A stretch of 61,686 nucleotides of DNA, counting the filler, from Sphacelaria rigidula (lineage: Eukaryota), in the NCBI GenBank assembly GCA_964200075.2. It is 10 parts of 10 records of this genome, joined end to end, with 100 filler letters (N's around TTAATTAATTAA, not from the genome) between each part and the next. Parts side by side here need not be neighbours in the genome. Positions count along the whole stretch, not along the records: positions 30,896 to 36,974 come from CAXNAA020022383.1; 9 more parts are not named here. The stretch is one strand, 5' to 3'. Shown one piece after another: positions 1,474-61,686 of this stretch (position 1 is its first letter; each line of letters starts with the position of its first letter). Below the pieces are notes generated by a model that saw only the letters and a list, made by a program, of their open reading frames with translations, had not been told where the DNA came from and searched no databases. A program made the position numbers and the translations under genes.

Positions 1474-2795
1474 GTAACATAATATTGTGTGTATGTACTC
1501 CGTACTTTGATTTGTGCTCTTGCTGCTTCTTGCTTTGCAGTGACCTAGCTACGTACAGAAGAACCGGGTCAGCTCTCCTTTGTTTTGCACTTTTTCCGTT
1601 GTTAAATCTTGTCTCCGTCGCTCCTTCTTGGTTTTTGTATTACGAATGGATAATGACTTTATCTTCTCGTTGGCATGTTATCATCTTGTTTTTGGCCGCC
1701 ACCTCGATAATATTTTCCTTCAAGAAGCGAGGTTTGTCCCGCCTTCTCCTTCGCCAGTCGTAAACCCTCGTCGCTGGTTCTGTCCCTGCCGGCGCCGCAC
1801 CTTGTCTTCGGTACCAACCATGCAAGGGTGGACAGACTAAGTGATCATCTGGAAATTACTTGATTTTAGTGTAATTGATTCGTACCGTACGAATCAATCC
1901 TAAGGCTTTGTTTTCAGCGTTGCAACCCAGGTACTGTACGCACAGCCCAGGTACGTGGAATGGCGCAAAACGTTTTGACCGCAATCGACTTTGTTTCTTC
2001 TCTTTTTTCGAGCAATCAGGCCTGAGAAATCGTGGATTCGGTGATTCGAAACGGCGATGATTGATCCGAACCGTGCAACCTTGATACGCACTACTCTTTC
2101 TTTGGCTTGTACCCTTACGAAATAATCACAAAGTGTGTTGATTTTTTTTCGGATGTATTCTTCTCTCGGTTACTGTGTACCTTGCCTTGCAATTCATTAT
2201 ACCCAGCAGTGGGTTATTGAATGTCGACCTCTCCCGCTGCCCGTCGACTTTCATCGGGTTATTTCTTTTTCTTCTTCCTGTCATCTCGCATCCCCACGCA
2301 TTCCATGACAGAACCCCCCCCCCAAAACAAAACATGTACTGTCAAGATTCCGACCCTAATATCCGCTTGAAGCGACCATCGAGGCGGCTTGTCGGGCACC
2401 GTTGAAGATTTATTGTAGAGTGTTTGCTACACTGTGGCCCAGCTGCTAAACGGTGGCCACACGGTATTCTCACGGTCTGTCCAGTCGAGTCTGAATCGGG
2501 CAGGTAGCTTTCAAATTCTTCAGATTCGGAACGGGTGCACTTGATATCAGGTAGTTTTAGAGATTTACTAATAATGACAAAGGACTCAGAGGTGGAGGAT
2601 AGTCTATATCCAAGCTACTACGAGGCCCAAATAATGAGCACGGACTGAGTTGCGTGTGGACCGGTCCGCCTCGGATCGTGTCTTTACTGTATTCCTGCTG
2701 GATGTCACGGCAGGAAGCAAAGTGGAAAAGCAACAGGCTTGCTCCATAACTTTTTCTCCTCCAATCCAAAGACACAGCAAATGATACTGTCATGT

Positions 2796-2999
2796 TAGAG
2801 AGTTTCGGAAAGCGCTCTTTCGACATTTCAGAGTGCAAATATCTCAGGATCAGTGTCCAAAATCAGAGGGGAAAAAACAAAAAACAAAAAATTGACGGGA
2901 TACCACATTTGACGGAGGGGGAAATAATTTTGCGTTACATTCTGATCCTGAGATATTGGCACTCTGAAATGACGAACAAGCGTTTTTCGAAACTCTCTA
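2796..2999. mobile_element. ~200-bp MITE with ~58-bp terminal inverted repeats, TA at both ends
   Basis: 2796-2853 (tagagagtttcggaaagcgctc...ctcaggatcag) is the near-exact reverse complement of 2942-2999. Confidence 0.8.
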
Positions 3000-4080
3000 T
3001 TACCGTGAGCGAGGCATTGATCCGCCACACGACATAAAACCGCGGTTGCTAACATTGTTCATCTTCTGCTCTCTATACATTCCAGACAGCGAAGTGGAAA
3101 CCCGTTCAACTACGACGTTCATCCACCCCTCCAACCGGCGAAAAATACGGAGAGCGCGGTCTTCCTCCGTCTGGTGAGCGCTCGCCCCTTGGAAACGGAG
3201 AGTGGCGAGCTCCCGCACAGGTGAGTGGTATCACTCACGCAGATGTTTGTTCAAAAGCAGAGAAAGAGGTGTGGGTAAGGCAGGGTAAGGGCTGCACAAC
3301 TCAAATCATATACTGGACGAGGAAAAATGCGCGCGGGAGGATTTATATAGGAGGTGATGAGGGTTATGTTATGGACACGTTCGATCTTAACCTTTCGTGA
3401 CGACGTTGAATAGGCTGATGTACGCTTCGGCTTCGAATAGTCAAACAATATTTCGCTTGGCTAGAGTAATGCTACGGTAGGGGGGGGTGCACTCATGATC
3501 ATGCATGCCATAGTCATGCTACGGTAGGATGCTACGGTAGGGGGGTGCACAAATATTTCATGAGGTTAGAATTGTTAGCAGTCCTTCATCTCATCTAGAA
3601 CACGACTTATGAAATATGTGAGGCTACGTCAGCATTATTCTTCCAATGTGGTTAGGGATATCCTGGAGGAATTTGCAAACGGAGATGCACTGACCCATAT
3701 TCTTGTGCATCTAGAATAGTTAGGAGCCCCTGCGTCAGACAACATTGAAACACGGGTTCCGAGAAGGAGCACGCAGGGTAGAGCTCGCAGTCGGCAGCCA
3801 ACTCGAACCAGCACCGTAGAGCCTCCAAACGCCAGTATAACCCCGCGTGCGTGACTTCTGGGGTGAGGCTTATAAACTGCCGGGCGCCCCGATTCCACTG
3901 GTAAACACCCATATTCGGGTCTTTAGCGGGGCTGACAGTCCCAACTGCCCTTCGCGTGCGCAGAACGTGTTTTCGTCAAGATCAGCGCCTGCCTATCGCG
4001 CAGTTTTGAGGTCTGCCAACGCCACACTTTGCCTAGGGAACGCTTCACACACACCCTTACCCGAGGGTTCTCGGTATGCC

Positions 4081-4126
4081 TTGGGTTAGGGTTAGCGTTA
4101 GCGTTAGGGTTTTAGGGTTAGCGTTA
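4081..4126 (+). repeat. interstitial degenerate telomere-like (TTAGGG/TTAGCG) tract
   Basis: ttgggttagggttagcgttagcgttagggttttagggttagcgtta. Confidence 0.7.
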
Positions 4127-4632
4127 TTTGACGAAAAAACAAAACGTTTCCGAGAAATTTCTGCACCGACTAGATGGTGAACACACTTCCCCGATTCACC
4201 ATGCCCGGCGGCGAAGCGACGAACTCCAGGGTTTCTTCCGCCATTCACAATGGGCATGTCCCAGCCCCTCAACTTGCATTTCTCTTTGCGTCGCGGACGC
4301 GCGCTTGACGCGCTAGGCGCTACTGCAGCGGGTTCAAGGGGAGAGAAGCGAGGAGAGGACCTTGCGCGAAGAACTTCAGGACTTTTTCGATCATTTGGGG
4401 TTCAAACCTGAGTCAGGATTTTTGACAAAGTAAGAGCGAGTTATAACAATAGTTGTCTTCATCGCACTACTTTTGTTGTTGTGTGTTGACGAGCATCTGA
4501 CAAGAATTGTACAAGAACGAGTATATAGATATGAAGAGTTCAGCCGTCGGCGATATATATATGAGTCGTACATATTTGGGTAGTACCTACTAACTCAAAT
4601 TACAGGCTGTATTTCCCTTTGTTCTGCTCAAA

Positions 4633-4715
4633 GGGGAGGGGGGCGTACTCATTTGTCGTTTGCCTTAGTCGTGTGACCAGTGACCACGCATCCCTTTCGA
4701 GACGGAGCACCCTCC
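4633..4715 (+). repeat. copy of dispersed repeat family A (G-run followed by ...gtcgtttgaccagtgaccacgcatccctttcgagacggagcacc)
   Basis: Similar sequence at ~39804-39940 (+), ~55640-55828 (+) and ~60388-60484 (-), in other contigs. Confidence 0.75.
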
Positions 4716-5035
4716 TCCCCTGAGGGGGGGTATACCGCAGGTCGCCTCCAAATTATCCACGGTTGACGCATGTTGAAAATTGATGCTGAGCCTAACCCCA
4801 GCCCCAACCCCAACGCGGGGCATATCATCGAGAACCCTCGGGCAAGGGCGATGCCGAGAGTACTCTAGGGAAAGCGCCTGTTCGTTCGACAAGGAGGACG
4901 TGACCGGAATCTGTTCTTTTAAACTTTCCCCGATTACAGGGTGTTGTCGTTCCAACTCATGTTGGACTCCTCGTGTTTTTCTCCTTGTTCTGTTTTGCCT
5001 TCCATCACACTCTTGACCCTCCCCTCCTTCTTCGA

Positions 5036-5240
5036 GACGAATCCGTGGTCTCGAGGGATGAAGCCGTCTCTCCCGCGGCACTGTACTTGCCTGACATTTC
5101 GGCATCGCGGGTCGGATCAGTACCCCCGCACCGTATCGACTATGCTTGCATGAAGTTTCTAGATGCTACTCACGACACACGAAATCAGATGCGCCTCAGA
5201 GATTTGCCTCAAGTATATCTGCGTGGATTCGAACCCTCTT
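5036..5240 (-). mobile_element. degenerate copy of dispersed repeat family B, probably SINE-like
   Basis: The motif gagtc(c/t)gtggtctc(a/g)agggat...ctcccgcacc recurs at ~7086-7345, ~11865-11970 and ~58464-58700, usually followed by a degenerate reverse B-box ((g)attcgaac). Confidence 0.55.
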
Positions 5241-6079
5241 TTCTTCTCTGCCGCCCTGAATTTCTTGAGGCGTTCCTGTCCCTGGGCACGGAAACATGGC
5301 GATTTGCTCTTGACGTGCCTAGCGACGCCTAAGCTCTCTCCCACTTCCCGCTTGATTGCCATGGATAAGGACTATAACTCCGCGACCGACACGGTGGGAG
5401 AAACCGACCACATGATCTAGTCCTACTCCAACCCCCCCTTGACATCATCCCTCATACGTATAGACTGATCGTTCACAGCCCGACCGGGTGCGAACGCCTC
5501 CCTCAACGCGCGCACTCGACCTACTGCTTAAACAAAGACACAATCGCCCCTACAAAATAGGACAATATCACCAACAGCACACAAAACGATCGCTTTTGCG
5601 CGCATTTCTTGTTTTATGCTTTTCATTCCGTCAACCATTGCGGCCCAAATATTTGTTTGCCTTTCCCCACCCAACAAATTGAAAACCTTACAGGATCGTC
5701 CGAGCGTTCAATCACGCTCGTTGGAAGGCGTACCGGGAATCGTTCACGCCCAGGAAAGCTGCGCCTGAAAATAGCGCTTTTACTGCTACTCTGCAAGACA
5801 CAGCCCACGGTGGCAAGATCGGTAGCGGCGGTAACGGTGATGACCACCGTGCCGAACGTCGTAGCACTATGTCGACGTCTTCAGCCGAGACGGAGGTGGC
5901 TTCGGACGACTCAGCGTCAGGTACTCTACCATAGTACAGTACATGCACGCGATAATACTGACTGCAGACAAAGCTGCATATCCTACCGCGTTATGGACAG
6001 CATGAACTAGCCAACCCCCCCCCCCCCCCCCCCCCACCCCCCCCCCCCCACCCCCCCCCCAAAAGCCACCCACACAAAC

Positions 6080-6179
6080 NNNNNNNNNNNNNNNNNNNNN
6101 NNNNNNNNNNNNNNNNNNNNNNNTTAATTAATTAANNNNNNNNNNNNNNNNNNNNNNNNNNNNNNNNNNNNNNNNNNNN
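6080..6179. other. artificial contig spacer
   Basis: 44 N + TTAATTAATTAA (stops in all six frames) + 44 N. Confidence 0.99.
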
Positions 6180-7806
6180 CTGCTGCTATCTCTCCAAACC
6201 TACGCTGAATACCGTCCACCGTACTTTTCGATTCTGGGGGCATATAGATGTTCTCGAGGGGGAGGGGGGGGTGCTAATAACAAGACATACATACGCATGA
6301 AACGGGGTACTGATCCATGATGAATAACTTTTCGACAAGAGGTCGACTGAGCAAGCAGCCATGACAAATGAGCCGCTTCGTGACACACAAAGGCTTTATA
6401 CGTCATTGCTCGAGGAATCCGTAGCCGCGCAGTGTACATAACGCCGTCCAGGGTATGCGTGATAATTTTCTTCTCGTACGTTCTTCTCTTGGTGGGTTTG
6501 ATTCCACTACACTCTCCAAGTAAGTGTAGCGGTGTCCCCCCCCGACACAGGTAGGAACGCTTCGATCCTCTTCTTGCTTCCGACAGAATCGGCAAGAACC
6601 AAAAAATAAACATATGGGCCAAGATTCCTACCCCAGAAGAAGGAGCTTCGGGAGGTTCCGGAGTATACCATCCTGAGCAATAAGAACACCGGCCGGGACC
6701 TTCTCTCTAAACGTGGACTCTGTGTCGCCGTAAGATATATATGGTGTACCAAAAGATCTTCACGAGATAGTTGCAAAGACAGGACCATCGGTGGCGCGGT
6801 TTCCGCACCTCACCAGAAAATCGGTGTTGTATTGCTTCCTAACCTACGGTACCGCTTCGCAGACCCCGCTCCTGCGTTGAGAAGCAGGGTCATGAACGCA
6901 ACTGGACCCGAAATTCGCTTCCACCAACCCTTCAGGGATAAAGGCAGTGACCTCTCAACCCTGCGTGGGCCAGAGGTTGAAGCGATGGCATCGACACACT
7001 AATACGCGCGTGACTTGCCTGGTTTTCCGTACTTCTGTTCGGCATCCGTTTCATTGCCCTCCCGCCTCCCTCCTTTCTACGGAGGACGAGTCTGTGGTCT
7101 CAAGGGATGGACCCATCTCTCCCTCAGCGCATGCCTTGCAATTTTTTTATCGGGGATAGGATCGGCACTCCCGCACCAGGTGGACTCTGACCCAGCAGGC
7201 GGTTTTCGCTACTCACGCGTTCATGTTCTAATGGACGAAAACCAAATACTTTAAGAATAAAAACAAATACGAGTACATCTGCCGTGATTCGAACGCCCGT
7301 TTCTCTGACCAAATGCTGTCTGTCAGCCATCAGACCACCGAAGTGCGGTGGCTCTGTCAATGAGCGCTATCCGACCAGGGAACATTCACGCCTTCGTCGC
7401 GATTTTACCTACTCTCTCGTATGAGACAGTAGGGGGTGTTGAGAGCACGATGGGAAAAAACGATCATGCACGCGCTCCGCCCCGATTTTCGAAAGTGGGC
7501 GAAGTCCTCCAAGTAGATGCATTTCCGACATACTTTCTACAGTTCTGTGAGGATTATTCCCATGAACTTTGCCACGAAAAACACAAACGATTAAAAATCT
7601 TCGGACACGATCAATTTTGCTCGAGAAAAAGCTGCGGCTCCTACATGGCGTGAAACAATAAATTCGTCGTTAGGATGTAAGGGAATGTTGTGACCACCAT
7701 GGTGATATCCAACAGACTCTAATAACTGAGAACGTACTTGTGAACCGCAACCAAATTAAGCGTGGCTCGTCAGCTATCGAGCTCGCAGCACAATCGCGAA
7801 ACCTAC

Positions 7807-12258: not shown

Positions 12259-12358
12259 NNNNNNNNNNNNNNNNNNNNNNNNNNNNNNNNNNNNNNNNNN
12301 NNTTAATTAATTAANNNNNNNNNNNNNNNNNNNNNNNNNNNNNNNNNNNNNNNNNNNN
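12259..12358. other. artificial contig spacer
   Basis: 44 N + TTAATTAATTAA + 44 N. Confidence 0.99.
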
Positions 12359-18437: not shown

Positions 18438-18537
18438 NNNNNNNNNNNNNNNNNNNNNNNNNNNNNNNNNNNNNNNNNNNNTTAATTAATTAANNNNNNN
18501 NNNNNNNNNNNNNNNNNNNNNNNNNNNNNNNNNNNNN
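18438..18537. other. artificial contig spacer
   Basis: 44 N + TTAATTAATTAA + 44 N. Confidence 0.99.
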
Positions 18538-24616: not shown

Positions 24617-24716
24617 NNNNNNNNNNNNNNNNNNNNNNNNNNNNNNNNNNNNNNNNNNNNTTAATTAATTAANNNNNNNNNNNNNNNNNNNNNNNNNNNN
24701 NNNNNNNNNNNNNNNN
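24617..24716. other. artificial contig spacer
   Basis: 44 N + TTAATTAATTAA + 44 N. Confidence 0.99.
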
Positions 24717-30795: not shown

Positions 30796-30895
30796 NNNNN
30801 NNNNNNNNNNNNNNNNNNNNNNNNNNNNNNNNNNNNNNNTTAATTAATTAANNNNNNNNNNNNNNNNNNNNNNNNNNNNNNNNNNNNNNNNNNNN
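30796..30895. other. artificial contig spacer
   Basis: 44 N + TTAATTAATTAA + 44 N. Confidence 0.99.
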
Positions 30896-30984
30896 ATGCC
30901 ACTTCAGCCCCATATTTTTGTATGAACCCCAAAATATAAAATCGGCTGTTCTTTGTAATCATTAATATGTTATGTGAAATGTCG

Positions 30985-31183
30985 TCCCCTTGTCCCAAAA
31001 CAAAATCCATCTTTAGTCAATCTATTAACTATTTAATAGACCAGTTTGTTGAATTAGAATCAAAATTGAAACTGAAATTAAAAACAAAAATTAATGTAAA
31101 ATATATAGTATCGAAGTTGAGCAATTGTCTTTTCCTTGCCCCCCCCAAAAAAAAAGTCGAACCATCCATCCTCCAAAAATCCA
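30985..31183 (+). repeat. two copies of the ~45-bp motif TCCCCTTGTCCAAAAAATAAAATCCAACCATCCATCCTC, downstream of the Rep gene
   Basis: Copies at ~30985-31011 (partial) and ~31124-31183, in the same orientation as the 33849-34363 array. Confidence 0.7.
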
Positions 31184-31185
31184 TT

Positions 31186-31276
31186 GTTGTGCATCTGGAA
31201 GCGTTAAGAGTCCCTGGACTAGATAAGATATCGCACAAAAAGTGCACACCTACCGTAGCGTTGCTCATCTGGTGTG
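31186..31276 (+). mobile_element. terminal fragment of dispersed repeat family D (...gtgcacccctaccgtagcattgctcatctggtgtg)
   Basis: Related segments at ~47040-47147, ~3468-3730 and ~51290-51490. Confidence 0.65.
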
Positions 31277-31694
31277 AAATCGAACCTGTGATCTCTCCCC
31301 CCTAATGGCATCAGTTGGACTACTTGACCCTTTTTGAACACGCGGGGAAAAGGCGGGAAGGAAAGATCATTCAAAAGACAGTGAAAAGGATACTGACACA
31401 CAAATGGTAGCCATAACGGCGCCGCTCGTATTGCACTGTACGGGGAAACAAGGAAAGTACGACGCGAAAGGGGCTACTGCAATGTCGTAGGAAGGACAGA
31501 GACCCAGGGAAGAAACGAAATACACAAAAGAAAGGGAGAAGCAATCACAATCGATCGAAGAATGCAGAGGCAGCTAAGTACGGCTACGACGCTTGCCAAG
31601 AGTGACACCAGCACACAGAACACGTCCGCCGGGAGTCGTCGGCAGAAGCGGACAGGCCGCAACTTGGGTGGAGTAAGCCGTCGCAGGAGCCGGC

Positions 31695-33599
31695 TCACGG
31701 TACCATGCCGATACAACCACCTGTAACACAGCCAGGCTCGGAGCAAGAAGAATGAACCAAAAGCAGGAGGTCTTCGATGCCGTCGTCCGGTGCTCCAGGA
31801 CCGTTGCGGAAAGTAGGAGTCAGAGCGGAAGGGCGGCAGGCCGGCTGAACACCGTCGTCCGAATCGCTGTCCGGGCCAACGGGGAAGTTAGGCACGCCTG
31901 GCATCCGGAGGTCGGCGACGATTCCTTAACTCGCGTACGGCGTTGACGGCATCGGCGATCTCCGCGCGGCGTTCGGCGTCGACCTTAGCCTGGTCGCACG
32001 TGAGCTCGATCCATTCCGCGTCTTGATGGTCCCAAAGAGCGAAACTCTCGCTGACTCGCCCACCGGAGCCGCCGGAGAAAAAGAGGGTGTACGCATGTTC
32101 TCGTCGGAAAAGGGACGGGCACACGAGAGCGACGAACTAAGCTTCGGCCCTCAACGCTTCCATAGGATGGGCGCTCGTGGGACAAACCCAGGAGGAGCTG
32201 GGGAGATACTCCCCATCTTGGATCATCCACGTGAGGATGGCCACAGAAGAAGGCGTGAGTGGACGCAAGAATTCCTCCCGAAAGCGTCGGACGCAAGACC
32301 AGAAATTCTTCTTGCCGAGTTCGAGGCGCACGTCCTTCACGATCTGACGCTGCAGCTTCCGGTACTCGGCGAGAGCGACCTTAATCTCCGTGCGAGACAC
32401 GTTCTTAGTCGCCGTCCGGAAGTGGCCTCTCCCGACATCCTTGGAGCAGTAGCCGACCATAGCTGGAGGGATATAAAAGGCACATGGAGAGAGGAGCGAC
32501 GGAAAGGGAAGAGCGATGCGAGGTAATGGACGGGAAAGAAGATAGGAGGAAGGAAAGGTTCGGGAGTGAAGGCGTACAGTAAGATGCGCAATGCAGGAGG
32601 GAGAGGTGAGGGTCGGGAGAAAGGGAGGAAGAATTCCAAGAAATATTTTCAAGTAAGAAACGAGAGTAGGAAATAATGCGTGAGCGATATTTAGAGAAGG
32701 AAATAAAATTGGAAGGGTACGAAGAGAAAAAAAAGTTGCCTTCAAAAGACTGCTTGGCACCGAGAGGTTTGACGTCAATCTTGAGTCGTAGATCAGGTCC
32801 CCAACTCTCGAACGTTTTAAGTTGTTACGTACGTCCGTGTTTATCTTCTTATCATCGTCGTAGGCCTTCACGATTCCCAATGTAAAAATCCCCTGGACGT
32901 GTAGGTTCCCCTTTTGCCCTCGAGACTAACTAACCCGCGCGTCGCCTTCTTCCCCAATAAGTGCGCCGGGTCATCGAAAATGGTGGCGGGTATGTTCCCC
33001 GCGTCGCGGGATGCTATCGTCAGAGAGAAGTCCACAGGATTCCCTGTTTCGGAATTGATGATATTGTCGATGACGTCACCGGTGCGGGGGCAGAGGTGGA
33101 CCGGAGATGGCTGACGCCGCGGACGACCGCGAGGCCGCGGCCAGGGGATAGAAGGGTCGGCAGCGGAGCGAGGGCAGGTACCGCTGACGTCGCCGGCGGC
33201 GCGGGGTTCGGCCGAGGAAGCATCGGCACCCCTGGCGTCGGAGGCGGCGGGGCGAGGGGAGGCACCGGCAGGGCGGCCGGAATTGGCGGCGCTGGCAGCG
33301 GTGGATGAAGCGGACATAGCGCCGTCGGAACCGGAGGGGATAGCTGACGCGGTACGAATGGAGGGGGCGGAGCGGCTGGAGGTGACGCCGTCGGAGACGG
33401 CGGCGATGCGGGGGCGTCCGCGGCGTCGCGGTTGACCGGCGAGTGGAGAGGATGGTGCGGTGGCGGCAGATGTCCGGACGAGATCCTCGGTGGTAGAGAC
33501 GCGGGGACGACGACCACGCGACCGCCCCGTGCGCGTAGGCCCATCGGGCGCAAGTGAAGGCGCAGGCCGGTCGTCAGTCGTACCCGTAGAACCCACCAT
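31695..33599 (-). pseudogene. degenerate Replitron-like HUH (Y1) endonuclease/transposase gene
   Basis: Reconstructed frame has motif I DFSLTI (33015-33032), motif II GNLHVQG (LHVQ at 32893-32904) and motif III KPLGAKQSFE|AMVGYCSKD (YCSK at 32440-32451), then GHFRTATKNVS and a C-terminal block ILTWMIQDGEYLPSSSWV...RAEA. Needs two frameshifts near 32910 and 32810, an intron 32739-32463 and readthrough of a TAG at 32137-32139. Confidence 0.8.
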
Positions 33600-33848
33600 G
33601 GCCGCAGGGTGCGGCGACGGGGTGACACCTCCGGCATGTGAGGGGTTACGAGGTGGAGACGCCGTCGTGAATGTCGTGGGCGATGCCCGACGCGTTAAAG
33701 AGGAAGGAGAGAGTGGCGCTGACGGGGGGAAAAGGAACAAGTTTCAGAAAAGAATAAGAATAAACGATGAGAAGATGAGATAATATCTGTGGTTATGTTG
33801 GAGGAATGAGTGCGAAATAAAAAAAGTGAAGTCGCGAAAATAGTGTAT

Positions 33849-34363
33849 TCCCCTTGCCCAAAAAATAAATCTTCCCCTTGTCCAAAAAATAAAATCCAAC
33901 CGTCCATCCTAAAATATATCATTTATTCATTTGATCTAATATCGTACTGATGCCTGGAAAGAGATTATTGCCCTCAAGTCATGAAAAAGAAAATTGTCTT
34001 CCCCTTGTCCAAAAAATAAATCCAACCATGCATCCTAAAATATATAATAATTTGTTAATTTTATTTACCTATAATATATTTGTATCTATTGTCTTTCCCT
34101 TGACCAAAAAATGAAATCCAACCATCTATCCTCAAACAATGTGTAATTAATTAATTAATTAATTAGTTAATTAATTAAACAAATATATAATATTTTATAC
34201 TTGTTATTCACTCAGGACCTCACAATTTCGGTCATCGGAATCGATGTTTGTATGGCGTGTAGTGGTTATCAATATAAGTCCAAAAAATAAAATTGAACCA
34301 CCCATCCTATTGTATTTCCCTTGTCCAAAAAATGAAATCCAATCATCCATCCTCAAACAATCC
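33849..34363 (+). repeat. array of about six dispersed direct copies of the ~45-bp motif in AT-rich DNA upstream of the Rep gene
   Basis: Copies start near 33849, 33873, 33993, 34088, 34278 (partial) and 34309. Confidence 0.85.
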
Positions 34364-34996
34364 TTCATGAATTAGTTATGTATTTTAATTACAATTAAAT
34401 TACAAGCTCAAAACAACCGAGAAATGAACGTAAAGTTAGGCGTCATAAAGCTATGCGCACGTTGTTCTTTCTTGTAGTAATTGGTGTTTTCCCTAGTGGT
34501 ATAACGTGTTCGAGCGCAAATAAATACAGAGTAATGATGAAACTTGGGAAAGATCACAGAAGTTATGAATTGATGCACCAGAGAGGGGAAGATGGGGAAA
34601 AGGTAAAAAGGAAGAAGAAAATTAACGTATCGTACAAAGTGAGAACTGTATACAGGGTGATGATGGAGTGGGGAAACATGGAGAAATATATTCGCTGATG
34701 GAGACGTGGTGCAGACGCGAAATTTCGAAATACTACAAATAAGAAATTGGATGTGGAATACTAAATACGGTTAGTTATTATGAAAATAAAAATGACGAAA
34801 TGAAGAGAATGTGAAGTGGGAGAGCAAAGCGCCATAGAGATCCGAACGAAATCGTACAAAACAGGAAGAAAAATACAGACCCGAAAAAAATGAGAATATT
34901 AGTAATGAAAGAAACGTAAAACGGAACGAACGGCTCCCCATAATTTGTAGGGCTATATCACAGATGCTTGGAATTTCACTTATTTATGAAAGGAGA

Positions 34997-35245
34997 CGGA
35001 TAAAATACATGTTGCCATACACTCTTGATCAGAGTTGAGAAACATAGCCAAATATTGGGTGATGGAGATGCGGTGCAGACGCGAATTTTGGATTTAGAAC
35101 ATACCTAAATATTTTATGTGAAAGGAAACGGATAAAACCCATGTTGCCATACTCTTCATCAGAGTTGAGAAACATAGCCAAATATTGGGTGATTGGGATG
35201 CGGTGGAGACGCGAATTTTCGATTTAGTACATAAATATTTTATGT
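34997..35245 (+). repeat. ~130-bp tandem duplication
   Basis: acggataaaa...catgttgccata...atcagagttgagaaacatagccaaatattgggtgat...gcggt...agacgcgaatttt occurs twice. A partial third copy lies near 34698. Confidence 0.8.
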
Positions 35246-35419
35246 GGGAAAGGATGTACTACTAGGGAGTATAAAACATGCAAGAATAAACTGAAGGAAA
35301 CATTAACTGGAAGAGACAAAGAAGATATCAGAAGAAATGACAAACGGAGAAAAAATAAATAAAGAGAATGTCAGTAATGGAAACAAAACATAAACGTTGA
35401 TAAAAACGATAGGTATAAC

Positions 35420-35704
35420 TCACAATACAGGCGAGAGCGTTGCACTGTCGGAGACAGAGTCGACGGAGGCAGTCGGCGTTGCGGTCTTCCAAGCGGGGGC
35501 AGTAGTGTTGCTTTGTACACGCTGCTTCTTGGGCGGAGATTCGTAGTCGTTGGTGTGGTCGTCGTCGTCGGACTCGTTGCTGTGATCGTCTGATTCGTCG
35601 TCGGACGTTAGACACTCGAGGACGTCGTGTCGTTTCTTCCCCGAGAAGACGTCGCACTCCTCGAGAGCTCGGCGCTGCTGCTTCGTACACTTGGTGACGA
35701 ACGC
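35420..35704 (-). CDS. putative terminal exon encoding an acidic tract and an NLS-like PPKKQRV
   Basis: Polypyrimidine tract plus cttag|GCG, then 94 open codons (AFVTKCTKQQRRALEECD...SDDESDDHSNESDDDD...ESPPKKQRV...) to TGA. GC-rich island in AT-rich DNA. Confidence 0.5.
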   Translation of the reverse strand, partial: AFVTKCTKQQRRALEECDVFSGKKRHDVLECLTSDDESDDHSNESDDDDHTNDYESPPKKQRVQSNTTAPAWKTATPTASVDSVSDSATLSPVL

Positions 35705-36974
35705 CTAAGAGGAAGAGGGAAGTACGAGAGAACAGTGTAGCGGGTGAGAAATCAGGAATAGGATTGGCTTGTGTGCGGTGGACAGCGGGTCGCAGAAGGA
35801 CATGCGAAGTAAGAAATCGCGTGGGCGAAACTGAGGAGGAGGTGATTAAAATGAAAAGATAATAACTTTCAATATTCAAAGCACATGAATTATAAACAGC
35901 CATACATCTATGTTGAGGATGGTGCTATACAGAATTAGTCGACGAAAAAATTTCCAATTCATATTCATGAAATTGTTATTCTTGAATTAAAGTTCGAGGA
36001 ATTTTTTTCAACAAAATAAGGAACCCTATTCATTTTTAATTTTGACTAGTTACTGAAAACATAAACTATTTCATGTCAACTTTTTAATTTTTGGCAGGCG
36101 CATATATTGCTGAAGCAGTTGAGGGACATTAACATATAATTACAATTTTAGAAGTAAATTTGCCTACTTGAAAAAAAAGAAATGATGAATTTAAAAAGGA
36201 GGAATAAGCAACCCATTAAACAAATAATCTTAAAAGGTTTTGAGGTTACGTAAAGTCATTGAGTCCATTTGCGGCCGCAGAAGTAGAACTAAGGATTTTT
36301 GTGCAGAACTATGGGCGCGAAAAAAACAGGAGTCAAAACTATGTTGCAGAGATTCCCGAGATACAGCAGATTTTGAAGAGAATGGCCATAATCGGCGCAG
36401 ATTTTGAAGAGGGCAGCGCAGAGTTGCCATTTGCCCGGGCGAAAAACCTGCAGGTAGACAGACTGACGTCCTCCTTCAAGGGCCGCACACGTTACACGTT
36501 CATGTTGCACATATGAGATCAAAAGTAAAGCCATGCCAGTACTACGGTGGGGGACGCGGACAAGGTGGGGAGCTCTGATAAAAAGTAAAGTCAGATCAGG
36601 GGTCCCTACGCGGTCGTCGTCGGTATTACTGCCCTTGCTTAACATTGGAGGTACCAAAAAAAAAGGCAGAGAAGAAACAAATGCGCAGGAAAGGCGCAGA
36701 AAAGCGAAAAAAAGCAGGAAAACTACATGAAATGCGCGATAAACGAGCGAAATAATGAGGAGATTGACTCAATGGGTAGTGACGTCGCGGTTGTGCGGTC
36801 GAGAATCACGAAATACACAGTGCAGTACAGTGAGAGACAAAAACAGCCGAAGCGGAATCGAAAAATAAAAATACGGTGGCGAAGGCAGCAAAGGAGGGAG
36901 ATGGTGAACATAACACAGATAGTAACAGCGAATCATCTATATTGAGGATGGTGCTTTTTGTTGAGGATGAAACA

Positions 36975-37074
36975 NNNNNNNNNNNNNNNNNNNNNNNNNN
37001 NNNNNNNNNNNNNNNNNNTTAATTAATTAANNNNNNNNNNNNNNNNNNNNNNNNNNNNNNNNNNNNNNNNNNNN
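36975..37074. other. artificial contig spacer
   Basis: 44 N + TTAATTAATTAA + 44 N. Confidence 0.99.
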
Positions 37075-40685: not shown

Positions 40686-40727
<42 letters not shown>

Positions 40728-41609
40728 CCCCCCCCCCCGCCCCCCGCCTGCCGCCGCCCACCGGTGGCAGTCTACGTTACAGGTCTTGCTGCGTTNNNNN
40801 NNNNNCCTCCTTTTTTTGGTATGTTAACACCTGTTTTTTCGCAACAATACTCTGTCTATCACGCCTCCCCCCCCCCCCCCCCCCCCCCATGCCCCATGTT
40901 TTCATGTGTTGCCAGTGTGAGTAAGTGGACTCGGAGTAACGATGTATGTACACTGTATTCGAGGTACTGTATGTCGGTACTACTTGACCACGAGTCAGAA
41001 ATATAGTACTTTCGTGACGATTGAAAAAAAAGTGAGGCAGCTAAGACACGCTTGACAAAATGGACCACCACGCAAGTGAACTCGCGACCAACGCGCGCCA
41101 TGAAAATGAACTATTTGCTGTGTTGCAACTCGAATTCCCTCTATGTCCCTCGAAGGTCCCCGATATTCAACAAACGAGCCCGCCACGGAGTATGCTCGAT
41201 AGTGCGTCCGGCATCTTCCTCAAAACGTTTCCTGTTTTTCTCGGTGGGCGCCTGGGGATGTTTGTTTGATTCTCACTTGGTATCCATATATTTTCTACGG
41301 TGTACTCCTTGTTGTTCGTTCTAATTACCATCGTACGCCTCTCCAGTTTCTTCATACCTTGTTGACAGATCTGGTTTGCCCCTTTCACTGAACCCCGACC
41401 GACTCGGAGCGGAGGTTCTCCCCTGTTCTCATGCTCTATCTCTTATCAAATAACAACAAATGCTTCAAAGCAATACCGGGGAGAGATGGGTTCATCCCCT
41501 GAGACAACGGACTCGTCCCGAGGAAGGGGGAGTGTTCAAAGTTCCACAAAATCAAAATCAACAATAAATAAACGAAAATAATGTATTTTGTATTCATCTA
41601 CATACATAC

Positions 41610-43152: not shown

Positions 43153-43252
43153 NNNNNNNNNNNNNNNNNNNNNNNNNNNNNNNNNNNNNNNNNNNNTTAA
43201 TTAATTAANNNNNNNNNNNNNNNNNNNNNNNNNNNNNNNNNNNNNNNNNNNN
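43153..43252. other. artificial contig spacer
   Basis: 44 N + TTAATTAATTAA + 44 N. Confidence 0.99.
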
Positions 43253-46909: not shown

Positions 46910-49330
46910 CCTTGAAACCGGAAAGACGTCTCGTGTGTGGTACTTGAATCTCTGCTATTGAAGTGGTGGGGACTTGTCCGTGGACTCTCGTATCGGTGAG
47001 AATCGAGGACACTCATGTACCGGGGAGCTTGCAAACGGGGATACCCTGACGCATATTTTTGTGCATCTAGAATCGTTAGGAGCCCCTGTACTAGACATGA
47101 TTTCGCGGAATAAGTGCACCCCTACCGTAGCATTGCTCACATGGTGTTGCTGGTGCCCCGCTCAAAATGGGACCAAAAGCACTCGTTCAAAGGACCCTGT
47201 ACTGTGGCGAAGTCAGGCCATTTCCACATTTGCGTGCTTTTAACTGCAGGTGTAAGATGCTGCGTGTCAGTTGCATCTCGGGGCATTCCCTTCAGTTGAC
47301 GTTCAAAAGCGCAGCCCCATCACGGATTCACTCGTGTTTCTGATGATGTCTTGGCAAATCATCTGTCAATCGAACAAGTGTATCGGAAAACAGAAATTGT
47401 GATCTGATCGAGCTGGGCCAGCCTAGATACGGATTTAAGCTCTCGAAGCAATATCTGATGGACACAGACGAGCTGGTCCGTGATCGGCATATCCTATTGA
47501 TCGTCTAGTCAAGGGGGAGGTGCCCATCCGCTCAAAAAAACTGAGTCAGTATTTTCTCCTTGATTAATCCCATGTCTATAATAGTAATTCCTAGACCTGA
47601 CGGAGATGATCGCGTCAACACTGAAATCCATGTGAAACCCCGAACGATACATTCAGCGGATGACAATTTCTGTTGTGGACCTTCCCTGGAGCACGGGGAG
47701 ACAAAAGATACCCTCAACTTCACCTAATTCGTGATCTATCTCGAGATATCGCGCACATGAGTTTCCATTATTATTATTACTAAGATTTATATATTACAAG
47801 CGGAGGCACTAGATGCCCAAAACTGGGTATCCCGCCTCAGTTTTTGAGAGTTGTGCTATGAAATTGCGTACGAGTATTGAGAACTGCTACTGTATGTAGT
47901 GTAAAATACAATATACATGAGGGCTTCTCATTTTTTCTTCATTTTTTCTCGTGTTTCAGTGAAGTTCCGGGGACAAATGAACATTGCCCTGAGGCCTTAT
48001 CTCAATTGTTTAGTTCTATTTTTAAAATTGTGATTTTAGCTTGGAGAACCACGAAGGCGTACCGAATGAAAAAATGGGCATTCCCTTTTTTTCATAGACG
48101 TCAGGGCGTCCTCGTGAAAACATGGTGTTCACCATACTAAAACACCCTAAACCATTGAAAAAAATCAAAAAATCAACCTGACCCACTGAAATTATGCCAT
48201 AGCGAGGGCCGACGCAAAATTTCAATACACAAAAACCAAACCTGGGCCGGTGAGTGGCGTGCGAAGTACTGTCCCGAATTTCTACCGACCCGATGTGCGA
48301 AAGGCGAACGCGCCGGCCGATATTTAGAGTTGGAGCGTATAATTTGGTATGGACACTGCATACGGCATGAAAAAAAAATAACAGGTAGTCTCTGCCAGAC
48401 GATATGGACAAAACGACTTTCAACGACGGACTCCTCCAGTATCACTGGCCTTAAATGATCAGTTTTCAGGTATCAGTAAAATACCCTTAAAACTCATGAA
48501 AAAAAACTTGTGTGTAGTCGTTTGTTTGTTTTTTAATGCCCCATGCATTGTCCATACCAAATCTCCTAGTTTATATATTGGGCGGCGCATGGGCCTGCAA
48601 ACTTCAAATCCGCCTCTAGGCTGGCCCAGCTCGTATGTAGATCGTGATTTCAAGTAATATCGTCGTTTATTTTGAAATCATCACGTACCAGATCGGAGTT
48701 TTCCTTTTACGCCGCATATTTTCGATCAAAAAATAATTTGCTGAGACACCCCTCGAGACACGTCCTAGTACAACAGCAGAATGATGCTAAACCGCAAGAT
48801 AGTCAATAACCTGGTCCTTGTTCCCTCCCGGAACTGCATATTAATTATTTTTTAGTCACGCTTTCAACTTCTGCCCTTCCTCGGGACCAGGGTTTCAAAA
48901 GGTCTGCAGGCTCGATATGCGGCCCCCCGGAGGGCGCCGGCTGCGTGGGCCCCCTCCCGGAGGGGCCCTGCGGAGCGGGGAAAAAGGGCTTCTCCACTTC
49001 AAAATACCCTCAAAATTAGTCAAGATGTGAAATGGGTTAGATCGTGGGCTGTAATGTATGATTTGGCTGTTTTTTTAATTAGCGACCCGGTTGGGTGGAT
49101 CCATCCTGGCCGGCACGAAAATACACGTGATCAGCTCTGCTGAAAAAGTCACCCATGACCATCCTTGAACCCGTTCAGGAACATGAACACGTGCGAATAC
49201 GAACACGCGGAAAAGACGTCTAACGCTGGTCATGTGAAAGTCTTGGAGTGACTACTGTAAACAATGTTTTCGTGAGATTGAGAATCTTCGATACGATTGA
49301 GAATAGGGGTAAGGCAAGCCGTCAGCGGTC

Positions 49331-49430
49331 NNNNNNNNNNNNNNNNNNNNNNNNNNNNNNNNNNNNNNNNNNNNTTAATTAATTAANNNNNNNNNNNNNN
49401 NNNNNNNNNNNNNNNNNNNNNNNNNNNNNN
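49331..49430. other. artificial contig spacer
   Basis: 44 N + TTAATTAATTAA + 44 N. Confidence 0.99.
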
Positions 49431-55508: not shown

Positions 55509-55608
55509 NNNNNNNNNNNNNNNNNNNNNNNNNNNNNNNNNNNNNNNNNNNNTTAATTAATTAANNNNNNNNNNNNNNNNNNNNNNNNNNNNNNNNNNNN
55601 NNNNNNNN
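55509..55608. other. artificial contig spacer
   Basis: 44 N + TTAATTAATTAA + 44 N. Confidence 0.99.
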
Positions 55609-55656
55609 GTGCATGGTGCGTCGGTCCGCAGCGGCGCGGGGGGGGGGGGGGTCGGG

Positions 55657-55703
<47 letters not shown>

Positions 55704-61637: not shown

Positions 61638-61686
<49 letters not shown>

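Follow-up and report, generated by a model that had tools for sequence, protein, structure and literature searches.

The window, by which we mean the whole DNA stretch of 61,686 nucleotides analysed here, carries on its minus strand a decayed transposase gene of a Replitron. We are highly confident that this gene is a dead Replitron copy of a brown alga, either Sphacelaria rigidula or a species closely related to it. The window consists of ten pieces, each about 6.08 kb long, which are joined through spacers of the form N44-TTAATTAATTAA-N44 (TTAATTAATTAA is a 12-mer) with a period of 6,179 bases. Features that lie in separate pieces are not genomic neighbours, and the genomic context of the Replitron gene is the piece 30896-36974 (6.1 kb) only. 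A tblastn search with P0001, an intact relative of 615 aa, found a single copy of the gene within the window and provided the map of its lesions. The coordinates of all features are listed in Table 1.

Identity of the pseudogene

Craig 2023 (PMC10288648), of which passages of the main text and of the sequence files are used here, describes a Replitron as a Y1 HUQ Rep, that is, a Rep with one catalytic Tyr, which has an adjacent conserved domain and no helicase. The motif criteria given there are motif I SUTU, a conserved Glu, motif II HUQ, and motif III GYxxK with one Tyr. The counterparts SLTI, SLE, HVQ, and GYCSK were all present in the window, though spread over different frames. The fragment at 32137-32925 (-) scored 44.4 bits (E 2.5e-11) on the Pfam family Replitron_HUH (PF21859, cut-off 28.5 bits). 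This score indicates that the motif set is far beyond chance. The motifs quoted in an original prediction made from the same DNA (FSLTI, LHVQG, VGYCSKD, ILTWMIQDGEYLPSSSWV, and TLFF) do lie on the minus strand, as their positions show. Its remark that no Walker motifs are visible also held, since Walker A (G....GK[ST]) occurred neither in the six frames of 30896-36974 nor in 98 retrieved relatives. None of 15 other reading frames of the 6.1-kb piece matched a Pfam family at its cut-off.

The second conserved domain of Replitrons is approximately 90 aa long and directly follows the Rep, according to the same passages (PMC10288648). In all six close relatives, Replitron_C (PF21860) was matched at the expected place with E<=0.009. 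Exon 2, which consists mostly of the Replitron_C-type domain, pulled out Replitron proteins along its whole length in a phmmer search. In the AlphaFold model of P0001, which was built with a 46-sequence alignment, this region is helical and has a high predicted local distance difference test score (pLDDT).

The gene ends in a Cys-rich module with a basic tail. Seven Cys and one His were invariant, in C4HC3 order, in all five aligned relatives, and the first Cys pair is spaced C-x4-C. All similarity to PHD was below threshold (KDM5B PHD, E 0.056; PHD_2, E 0.011), and so was the match to Znf_SCAND3 (E 4.9e-4, 20.4 bits, cut-off 27). The pLDDT of the module in the P0001 model was 45-62. One relative of 375 aa (P0004) carries the C4HC3 module twice in tandem, which suggests that it is a self-contained domain that can be duplicated. 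At the other end of P0001, residues 1-200 had a pLDDT below 50 and are predicted to be a disordered N-terminus. We take the RGRP/GRRPR motifs of the N-terminal region to be candidate AT-hooks because of the RGRP core motif.

Table 1. Features of the Replitron pseudogene and its surroundings (positions count along the whole window)
Feature	Position	Strand	Details
Replitron transposase pseudogene	31574..33599	(-)	ATG 33597-33599; true stop 31574-31576; two exons, four frameshifts, two premature stops
Coding part of the pseudogene	31577-33599	(-)	
N-terminal low-complexity region	33120..33515	(-)	three RGRP/GRRPR AT-hook-like motifs
RGRP/GRRPR motifs	33501-33515, 33411-33422, 33120-33131	(-)	
Rep HUH endonuclease domain	32359..33032	(-)	intron-interrupted; basis: Pfam PF21859, motif positions, fold
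Motif I FSLTI	33015-33029	(-)	
Candidate metal-ligand Glu in SLE	32919-32927	(-)	
Motif II LHVQG	32890-32904	(-)	HUQ
Motif III VGYCSKD	32437-32457	(-)	single Tyr
ILTWMIQDGEYLPSSSWV	32185-32238	(-)	
TLFFSGG	32068-32088	(-)	
Second conserved domain	32077..32286	(-)	Replitron_C, putative oligomerisation domain; holds the premature TAG
C-terminal Cys-rich C4HC3 module	31577..31745	(-)	with basic tail GKRRSRT
Intron	32463..32739	(-)	277 nt, phase 1, GC..AG in the window copy
Match to P0001 aa 1-249	33599-32919		frame -2
Match to P0001 aa 253-287	32919-32815		frame -1
Match to P0001 aa 286-312	32821-32740		frame -3
Match to P0001 aa 313-496	32463-31912		frame -1
Match to P0001 aa 501-603	31919-31611		frame -2
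Match to P0001 aa 602-615	31618-31577		frame -3
Frameshift 1	about 32905..32919	(-)	deletion of a length not divisible by three, immediately after the conserved Glu of SLE(RG); frame -2 to -1, P0001 aa 249/253
Frameshift 2	32815..32821	(-)	one base missing; frame -1 to -3; other copies with an extra C behind 32815
Premature stop TAG	32137-32139	(-)	Tyr in relatives
Frameshift 3	31912..31925	(-)	deletion of ~20 nt, about six residues lost; frame -1 to -2, P0001 aa 496/501
Premature stop TGA	31695-31697	(-)	replaces a conserved Cys
Frameshift 4	~31611	(-)	two bases missing; other copies carry CA behind 31611
~48-nt direct repeat, upstream	33839..34372	(-)	five to six copies
~48-nt repeat, downstream	30975..31191	(-)	one full unit 31142-31191, one partial 30975-31007
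Spacers between pieces	6080-6179, 12259-12358, 18438-18537, 24617-24716, 30796-30895, 36975-37074, 43153-43252, 49331-49430, 55509-55608		

Relatives and predicted fold

Exon 2 (108 aa) was searched among longer proteins and gave six matches. The best was P0001, annotated as 'unnamed protein product [Sphacelaria rigidula]', which is intact and 92% identical over exon 2. The second was P0002, a partial protein of Sphacelaria rigidula with 89% identity over the same exon. Sphacelaria rigidula is a brown alga (Phaeophyceae, order Sphacelariales), and the two best named matches agree with the earlier assignment of the DNA to a probable brown alga. P0001 itself reached 83.4 bits (E 2.2e-23) on Replitron_HUH and covered profile positions 1-128 of 128. 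When exon 2 was used as the query of an exhaustive phmmer search, 93 representatives passed E<=1e-3, of which 59, mostly the longer ones, entered a Pfam scan. Replitron_HUH and/or Replitron_C was found in 57 of these 59, and the remaining two (P0033 and P0053) showed low-complexity noise only. The original prediction had named copies fused to a helicase or capsid gene as contrary evidence, and no helicase or capsid Pfam family occurred in any of the 59. The catalytic motifs were preserved in all close relatives that cover them. A metagenome scan found no relative of P0001.

In the P0001 model, the block-mean pLDDT was mostly at least 84 over residues ~203-510, with two dips to 66-67. The model was compared with 48,161 representative chains by VIA-align, and the top seven matches were all Rep nuclease domains from CRESS-DNA viruses (Rep-encoding viruses with circular, single-stranded DNA). 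These were duck circovirus 7kii (Z 8.8, root-mean-square deviation 2.5, 95 residues aligned), porcine circovirus 2 (PCV2) 8h56 (Z 8.0) and 2hw0 (Z 7.7), nanovirus 6h8o (Z 7.3), Vientovirus (Z 7.0 and 6.9), and Smacovirus (Z 6.8). The Rep of adeno-associated virus, RepB of pMV158, and the IS200-type transposases ranked below these seven. A Foldseek search of the whole 615-aa model against the PDB returned nothing at E<=0.001. A self-association prediction for two copies of P0001 residues 200-510 scored 0.00, which speaks neither for nor against oligomerisation. The comparison with HUH Reps that the original prediction had proposed came out in its favour. Overall, the Replitron_HUH profile, 57 of the 59 relatives, the CRESS-Rep-like fold, and the lack of helicase or capsid matches bear out its view of a Y1 HUQ Rep with an adjacent domain and no helicase.

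Decay of the window copy

The results of tblastn showed that aa 1-615 of P0001 map onto the window as six segments in three frames. The size of frameshift 1, inferred from residue counts, is approximately 7 nt compared with P0002 and 10 nt compared with P0001; that of frameshift 3 was also inferred from the residue count. In addition, one in-frame 66-nt tandem unit near 33380 is absent compared with P0001. The window copy cannot supply a transposase, because it has four frameshifts and two stops and one of the shifts comes right after the candidate metal-ligand Glu. The original prediction had counted two frameshifts, one intron, and one premature stop. The intron count held; the other two numbers were too low. 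Within 31695..33599, the span it had covered, there are three frameshifts instead of two, while the single intron and the single stop (the TAG) were right. It had also ended the gene at the TGA, and the frame in fact runs about 120 nt further, through frameshift 4, to the true stop.

Contigs from four public runs (named X1, X2, X4, and X6) were aligned over 30900-35400. Their depth is a summed value and, by the tool's own caveat, cannot be read as copy number. At 32815, the extra base was carried by only 9.8 of 182.6 depth in X1 and by 73.2 of 232.8 in X2. In three runs, most contig depth at 32815 and 31611 matched the frameshifted version of the window, which argues that the lesions at these two sites are real. 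They may be common to several copies. In X1, X2, and X4, between one and six contigs per listed variant site carried a letter that differs from the window; such contigs may reflect strain or haplotype variation, and the counts are of contigs.

Intron and other copies

The intron borders in the window are GAAG/GCAACT for the donor and CCAG/CT for the acceptor (the slash marks the border). A contig of 2142 nt from run X6 joins 32462 to 32740, so that exactly 32463-32739 is missing. It covers 31578-32462, then 32740-33396, then 33331-33899. This contig has the same 66-nt duplication as P0001, an extra C behind 32815, and an extra CA behind 31611, and it differs from the window at 89 positions over about 2.1 kb (approximately 4% divergence). 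Another, less damaged copy therefore exists in spliced form. Run X6 was only guessed to be RNA and no run is on record as RNA; with that reservation, the less damaged copy is likely to be transcribed. Since the dead copy is accompanied by an intact gene model and a spliced form, this Replitron family is probably still alive.

Alternative explanations

Several observations weigh against the identification as a Replitron copy. Replitron_C stayed below its cut-off of 27 bits in the window fragment (16.3 bits, E 0.013), in P0001 (22.1 bits, residues 372-441), and in P0002 (25.7 bits). Of the two profiles that the original prediction wished to see checked, the HUH profile was matched above its cut-off and the C-terminal one below it. 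The VIA-align Z scores of 7-9 are in the range that the tool calls common, and their weight comes from the seven top rows being one family. The 2142-nt contig may be an intron-less DNA copy instead of spliced RNA. No element ends, target site, target-site duplication, or empty site were seen around the gene.

One alternative, which we regard as very improbable, is a domesticated host gene family that was derived from a Replitron and acquired chromatin-type modules, with the window gene as a pseudogenised paralogue. P0001 is an intact gene model in the deposited annotation, chromatin proteins typically have RGRP motifs and a Cys module of the PHD-like kind, and no termini or target-site duplications were shown; all this would suit a host gene. 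However, there appear to be several diverged copies, some with the same frameshifts, and the close relatives that cover the catalytic motifs have all kept them. The closest published relatives, in the passages used here, are consensus sequences of multicopy families from Macrocystis and Ectocarpus.

It is very improbable that the gene is a fragment of an endogenous CRESS-DNA virus, that is, a Rep gene taken up from a virus with circular single-stranded DNA, rather than a transposon. The nuclease fold resembles that of circovirus, nanovirus, smacovirus, and vientovirus Reps (7kii, 8h56, and 2hw0 among the circoviral chains), and the HUQ motif II with a single Tyr is as in circoviruses (PMC10288648). 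Against a viral origin, neither a superfamily 3 (SF3) helicase nor Walker A turned up in the gene, in its 6.1-kb piece, or among the 98 relatives, and no capsid partner accompanies the gene: helicase or capsid families were absent from all 59 scanned relatives, and the 15 other frames had no family at its cut-off. The profile that was matched is specific to Replitrons instead of viral Reps, the putative second domain is Replitron-specific, and the gene is nuclear, contains a spliceosomal intron, and appears to occur in several diverged copies. Equally improbable is that the frameshifts are assembly errors in a copy that is really intact: despite the artefact-like poly-G/poly-C tracts at piece ends and gaps and the contigs that are in frame at 31611 and 32815, depth at these two sites, the two of the six lesion sites that were compared, mostly agrees with the window in three runs, and six independent disabling lesions, including deletions of ~20 nt and ~7-10 nt, are too many for noise.

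Comparison with known elements

The identification as a Replitron agrees with what has been described for brown algae. In the passages used here, Craig 2023 names brown algae among the hosts of Replitrons and curates them as consensus sequences of multicopy families from Macrocystis and Ectocarpus (PMC10288648). Dataset S1 lists Replitron-1_mPyr of Macrocystis pyrifera (3386 bp, incomplete) and Replitron-1_eEC32 of Ectocarpus sp. (4000 bp, incomplete); the published stramenopile consensus sequences are all incomplete, and the regions flanking the conserved core are called unalignable (PMC10288648). Passages of these sequence files were compared with the window gene by eye. All come from brown-algal hosts and have the same order of blocks, namely an RPGRP-type motif, CPxTGD, DFSVT (motif I), ERG, and NLHxQG, followed by an intron or uncertain stretch just before MVGYCSKD and then by LFFSGG. 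In both published brown-algal proteins the RPGRP-type motif precedes CPxTGD, and the eEC32 passage continues into LPLIVCPKCVEP, the beginning of the Cys-rich tail. Two relatives, P0006 and P0020, are by eye close to the published eEC32 protein; P0006 is 61% identical to the window over exon 2 and P0020 matches its first 47 residues (E 6e-9). Unlike Replitron-1_eEC32 and Replitron-1_mPyr, the window copy is decayed, belongs to the order Sphacelariales, and by this comparison represents a distinct family. The two curated elements are visibly homologous to the window gene (PMC10288648), and the supposition that this lineage had no characterised Replitrons does not hold. The window gene adds a new family member to a lineage in which Replitrons were known before.

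Chlamydomonas reinhardtii Replitron-1, the founding and active element, has in these passages the same Y1 HUQ Rep, with the same order of strands and helices followed by a helical second domain, and it shares disordered termini, introns, and the absence of a helicase. Its terminal direct repeats are 6 bp long (TAAAGG) and its target sites are RG (PMC10288648), whereas the window gene is flanked by several copies of a ~48-nt direct repeat. Helitrons are likewise eukaryotic transposons with a Rep HUH transposase. Their RepHel protein works with two catalytic Tyr and is fused to a Pif1-type helicase (PMC10288648), whereas the window gene has one Tyr (GYCSKD) and no helicase.

An intact protein of this family would be about 615 aa long, with a disordered RGRP N-terminus, a Y1 HUH (HUQ-type) Rep nuclease, a helical domain, and the C4HC3 module. 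By analogy with HUH enzymology and the passages of Craig 2023, a divalent metal would be bound by the motif II His and Gln together with the upstream Glu. Single-stranded DNA would be nicked at the element end by the single Tyr of GYCSK, which would thereby form a covalent bond with the 5' phosphate. At least two subunits, multimerised through the second domain, may provide the two Tyr for cleavage and strand transfer, and the single-stranded DNA may be supplied by host replication or a host helicase. Spread would be of the copy-and-paste type, as Craig 2023 suggests in the passages used here. The window copy could at most be mobilised in trans by an intact copy.

The Sphacelariales are the third brown-algal order that hosts this transposon group, which was described in 2023, and the window copy leaves the picture of Replitrons unchanged. 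The C4HC3 module and the RGRP motifs, which have not been discussed, are already visible in the passages of the published brown-algal proteins. In the main text of Craig 2023, 'PHD' and 'AT-hook' are absent and 'zinc' occurs once, where the legend of Fig. 1 explains its domain boxes (PMC10288648). Judged by titles and the openings of abstracts, none of the other Replitron papers found concerns brown algae. For annotation, gene models such as P0001 are better labelled as transposase than as host protein.

Flanking repeats

In gene orientation, the ~48-nt unit is composed approximately of GGATGGNTGGTTGGATTT, a T-rich stretch, and GGACAAGGGGAA, in this order; its core is listed as GGATGGNTGGTTGGATTT...TTTTTTGGACAAGGGGAA. 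All units on both flanks have the same orientation as the gene. For each of two core patterns, all six whole-window matches fell within the two flanking zones, and none of 100 shuffles reached six. Contigs of other copies (records 6, 22, and 28) run from the 5' untranslated region into the proximal units, and at least these units therefore travel with the gene. The summed depth of X1 was 2,000-7,000 in the repeat zone versus approximately 100 in the gene body (20-70 times), and contig joints showed that the units are arranged otherwise elsewhere. The ~48-nt repeat is thus spread far more widely than the Rep gene. It may have arisen as a non-autonomous derivative, or it may be an abundant repeat of unrelated origin, with the element lying in it or next to it. 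Further variant contigs extend over 33999-35086 and 30951-31589, and the gene may be only a part of the repeated unit.

No hairpin with a GC stem and a nonamer-like loop was found near either gene end, where only AT-rich palindromes were present. In the published Replitron consensus DNA file the repeat core had no occurrence, and both brown-algal consensus sequences are incomplete there. Four metagenome matches to the 20-nt repeat core were exact; their flanks did not resemble the repeat unit, and they were rejected as chance.

The flanking arrays could help to define the ends of stramenopile Replitrons. A bolder reading, which we consider rather unlikely, is that brown-algal Replitrons form a distinct subtype with AT-hooks and a PHD-like zinc finger around the Y1 Rep, in which the subterminal arrays of AT-cored ~48-nt direct repeats serve as binding sites for the Rep or the AT-hooks, like plasmid or viral iterons, and seeded a much more abundant non-autonomous family. 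If true, this would define the ends of stramenopile Replitrons for the first time and supply the first model of their DNA recognition.

Other features of the piece and the window

Just downstream of the gene, a dispersed repeat at 31183-31352 is 83% identical to 47055-47147 in another piece, with an X1 depth of approximately 1,600. By eye, 31260-31345 looked tRNA-like (T-arm-like GGTTCGATTTC); this was not supported, as neither ARAGORN nor Rfam gave a match in the region or the window. Within 30900-30950, a stretch of ~35 nt had a summed depth of approximately 300,000 in three runs, compared with approximately 100 in the Replitron body, and many contigs diverge on both sides of it. This stretch looks like an extremely abundant short repeat.

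Upstream, 34987-35233 contains 1.9 tandem copies of a 130-nt unit with 90% identity, and a diverged partial third copy lies at 34657-34739. Variant contigs cover this unit in all aligned runs. Further upstream, and in the orientation of the gene, an exon-like open frame at ~35421-35704 (-) is acidic and Ser-rich, has a KKQR motif, and is bordered by an acceptor-like TTAG and a donor-like GTGAGT. It matched no Pfam family, and a search of the longer length class gave no homologue; the frame could be an exon of the host or belong to a larger repeated unit.

A purine skew at 31-37 kb coincides with the 6.1-kb piece, and nothing was drawn from it. Long poly-G/poly-C tracts were observed at piece ends and beside a 10-N gap (1-97, 6015-6060, 40687-40763, 55633-55702, and 61639-61686), which look like artefacts of two-colour-chemistry sequencing or assembly instead of biology.

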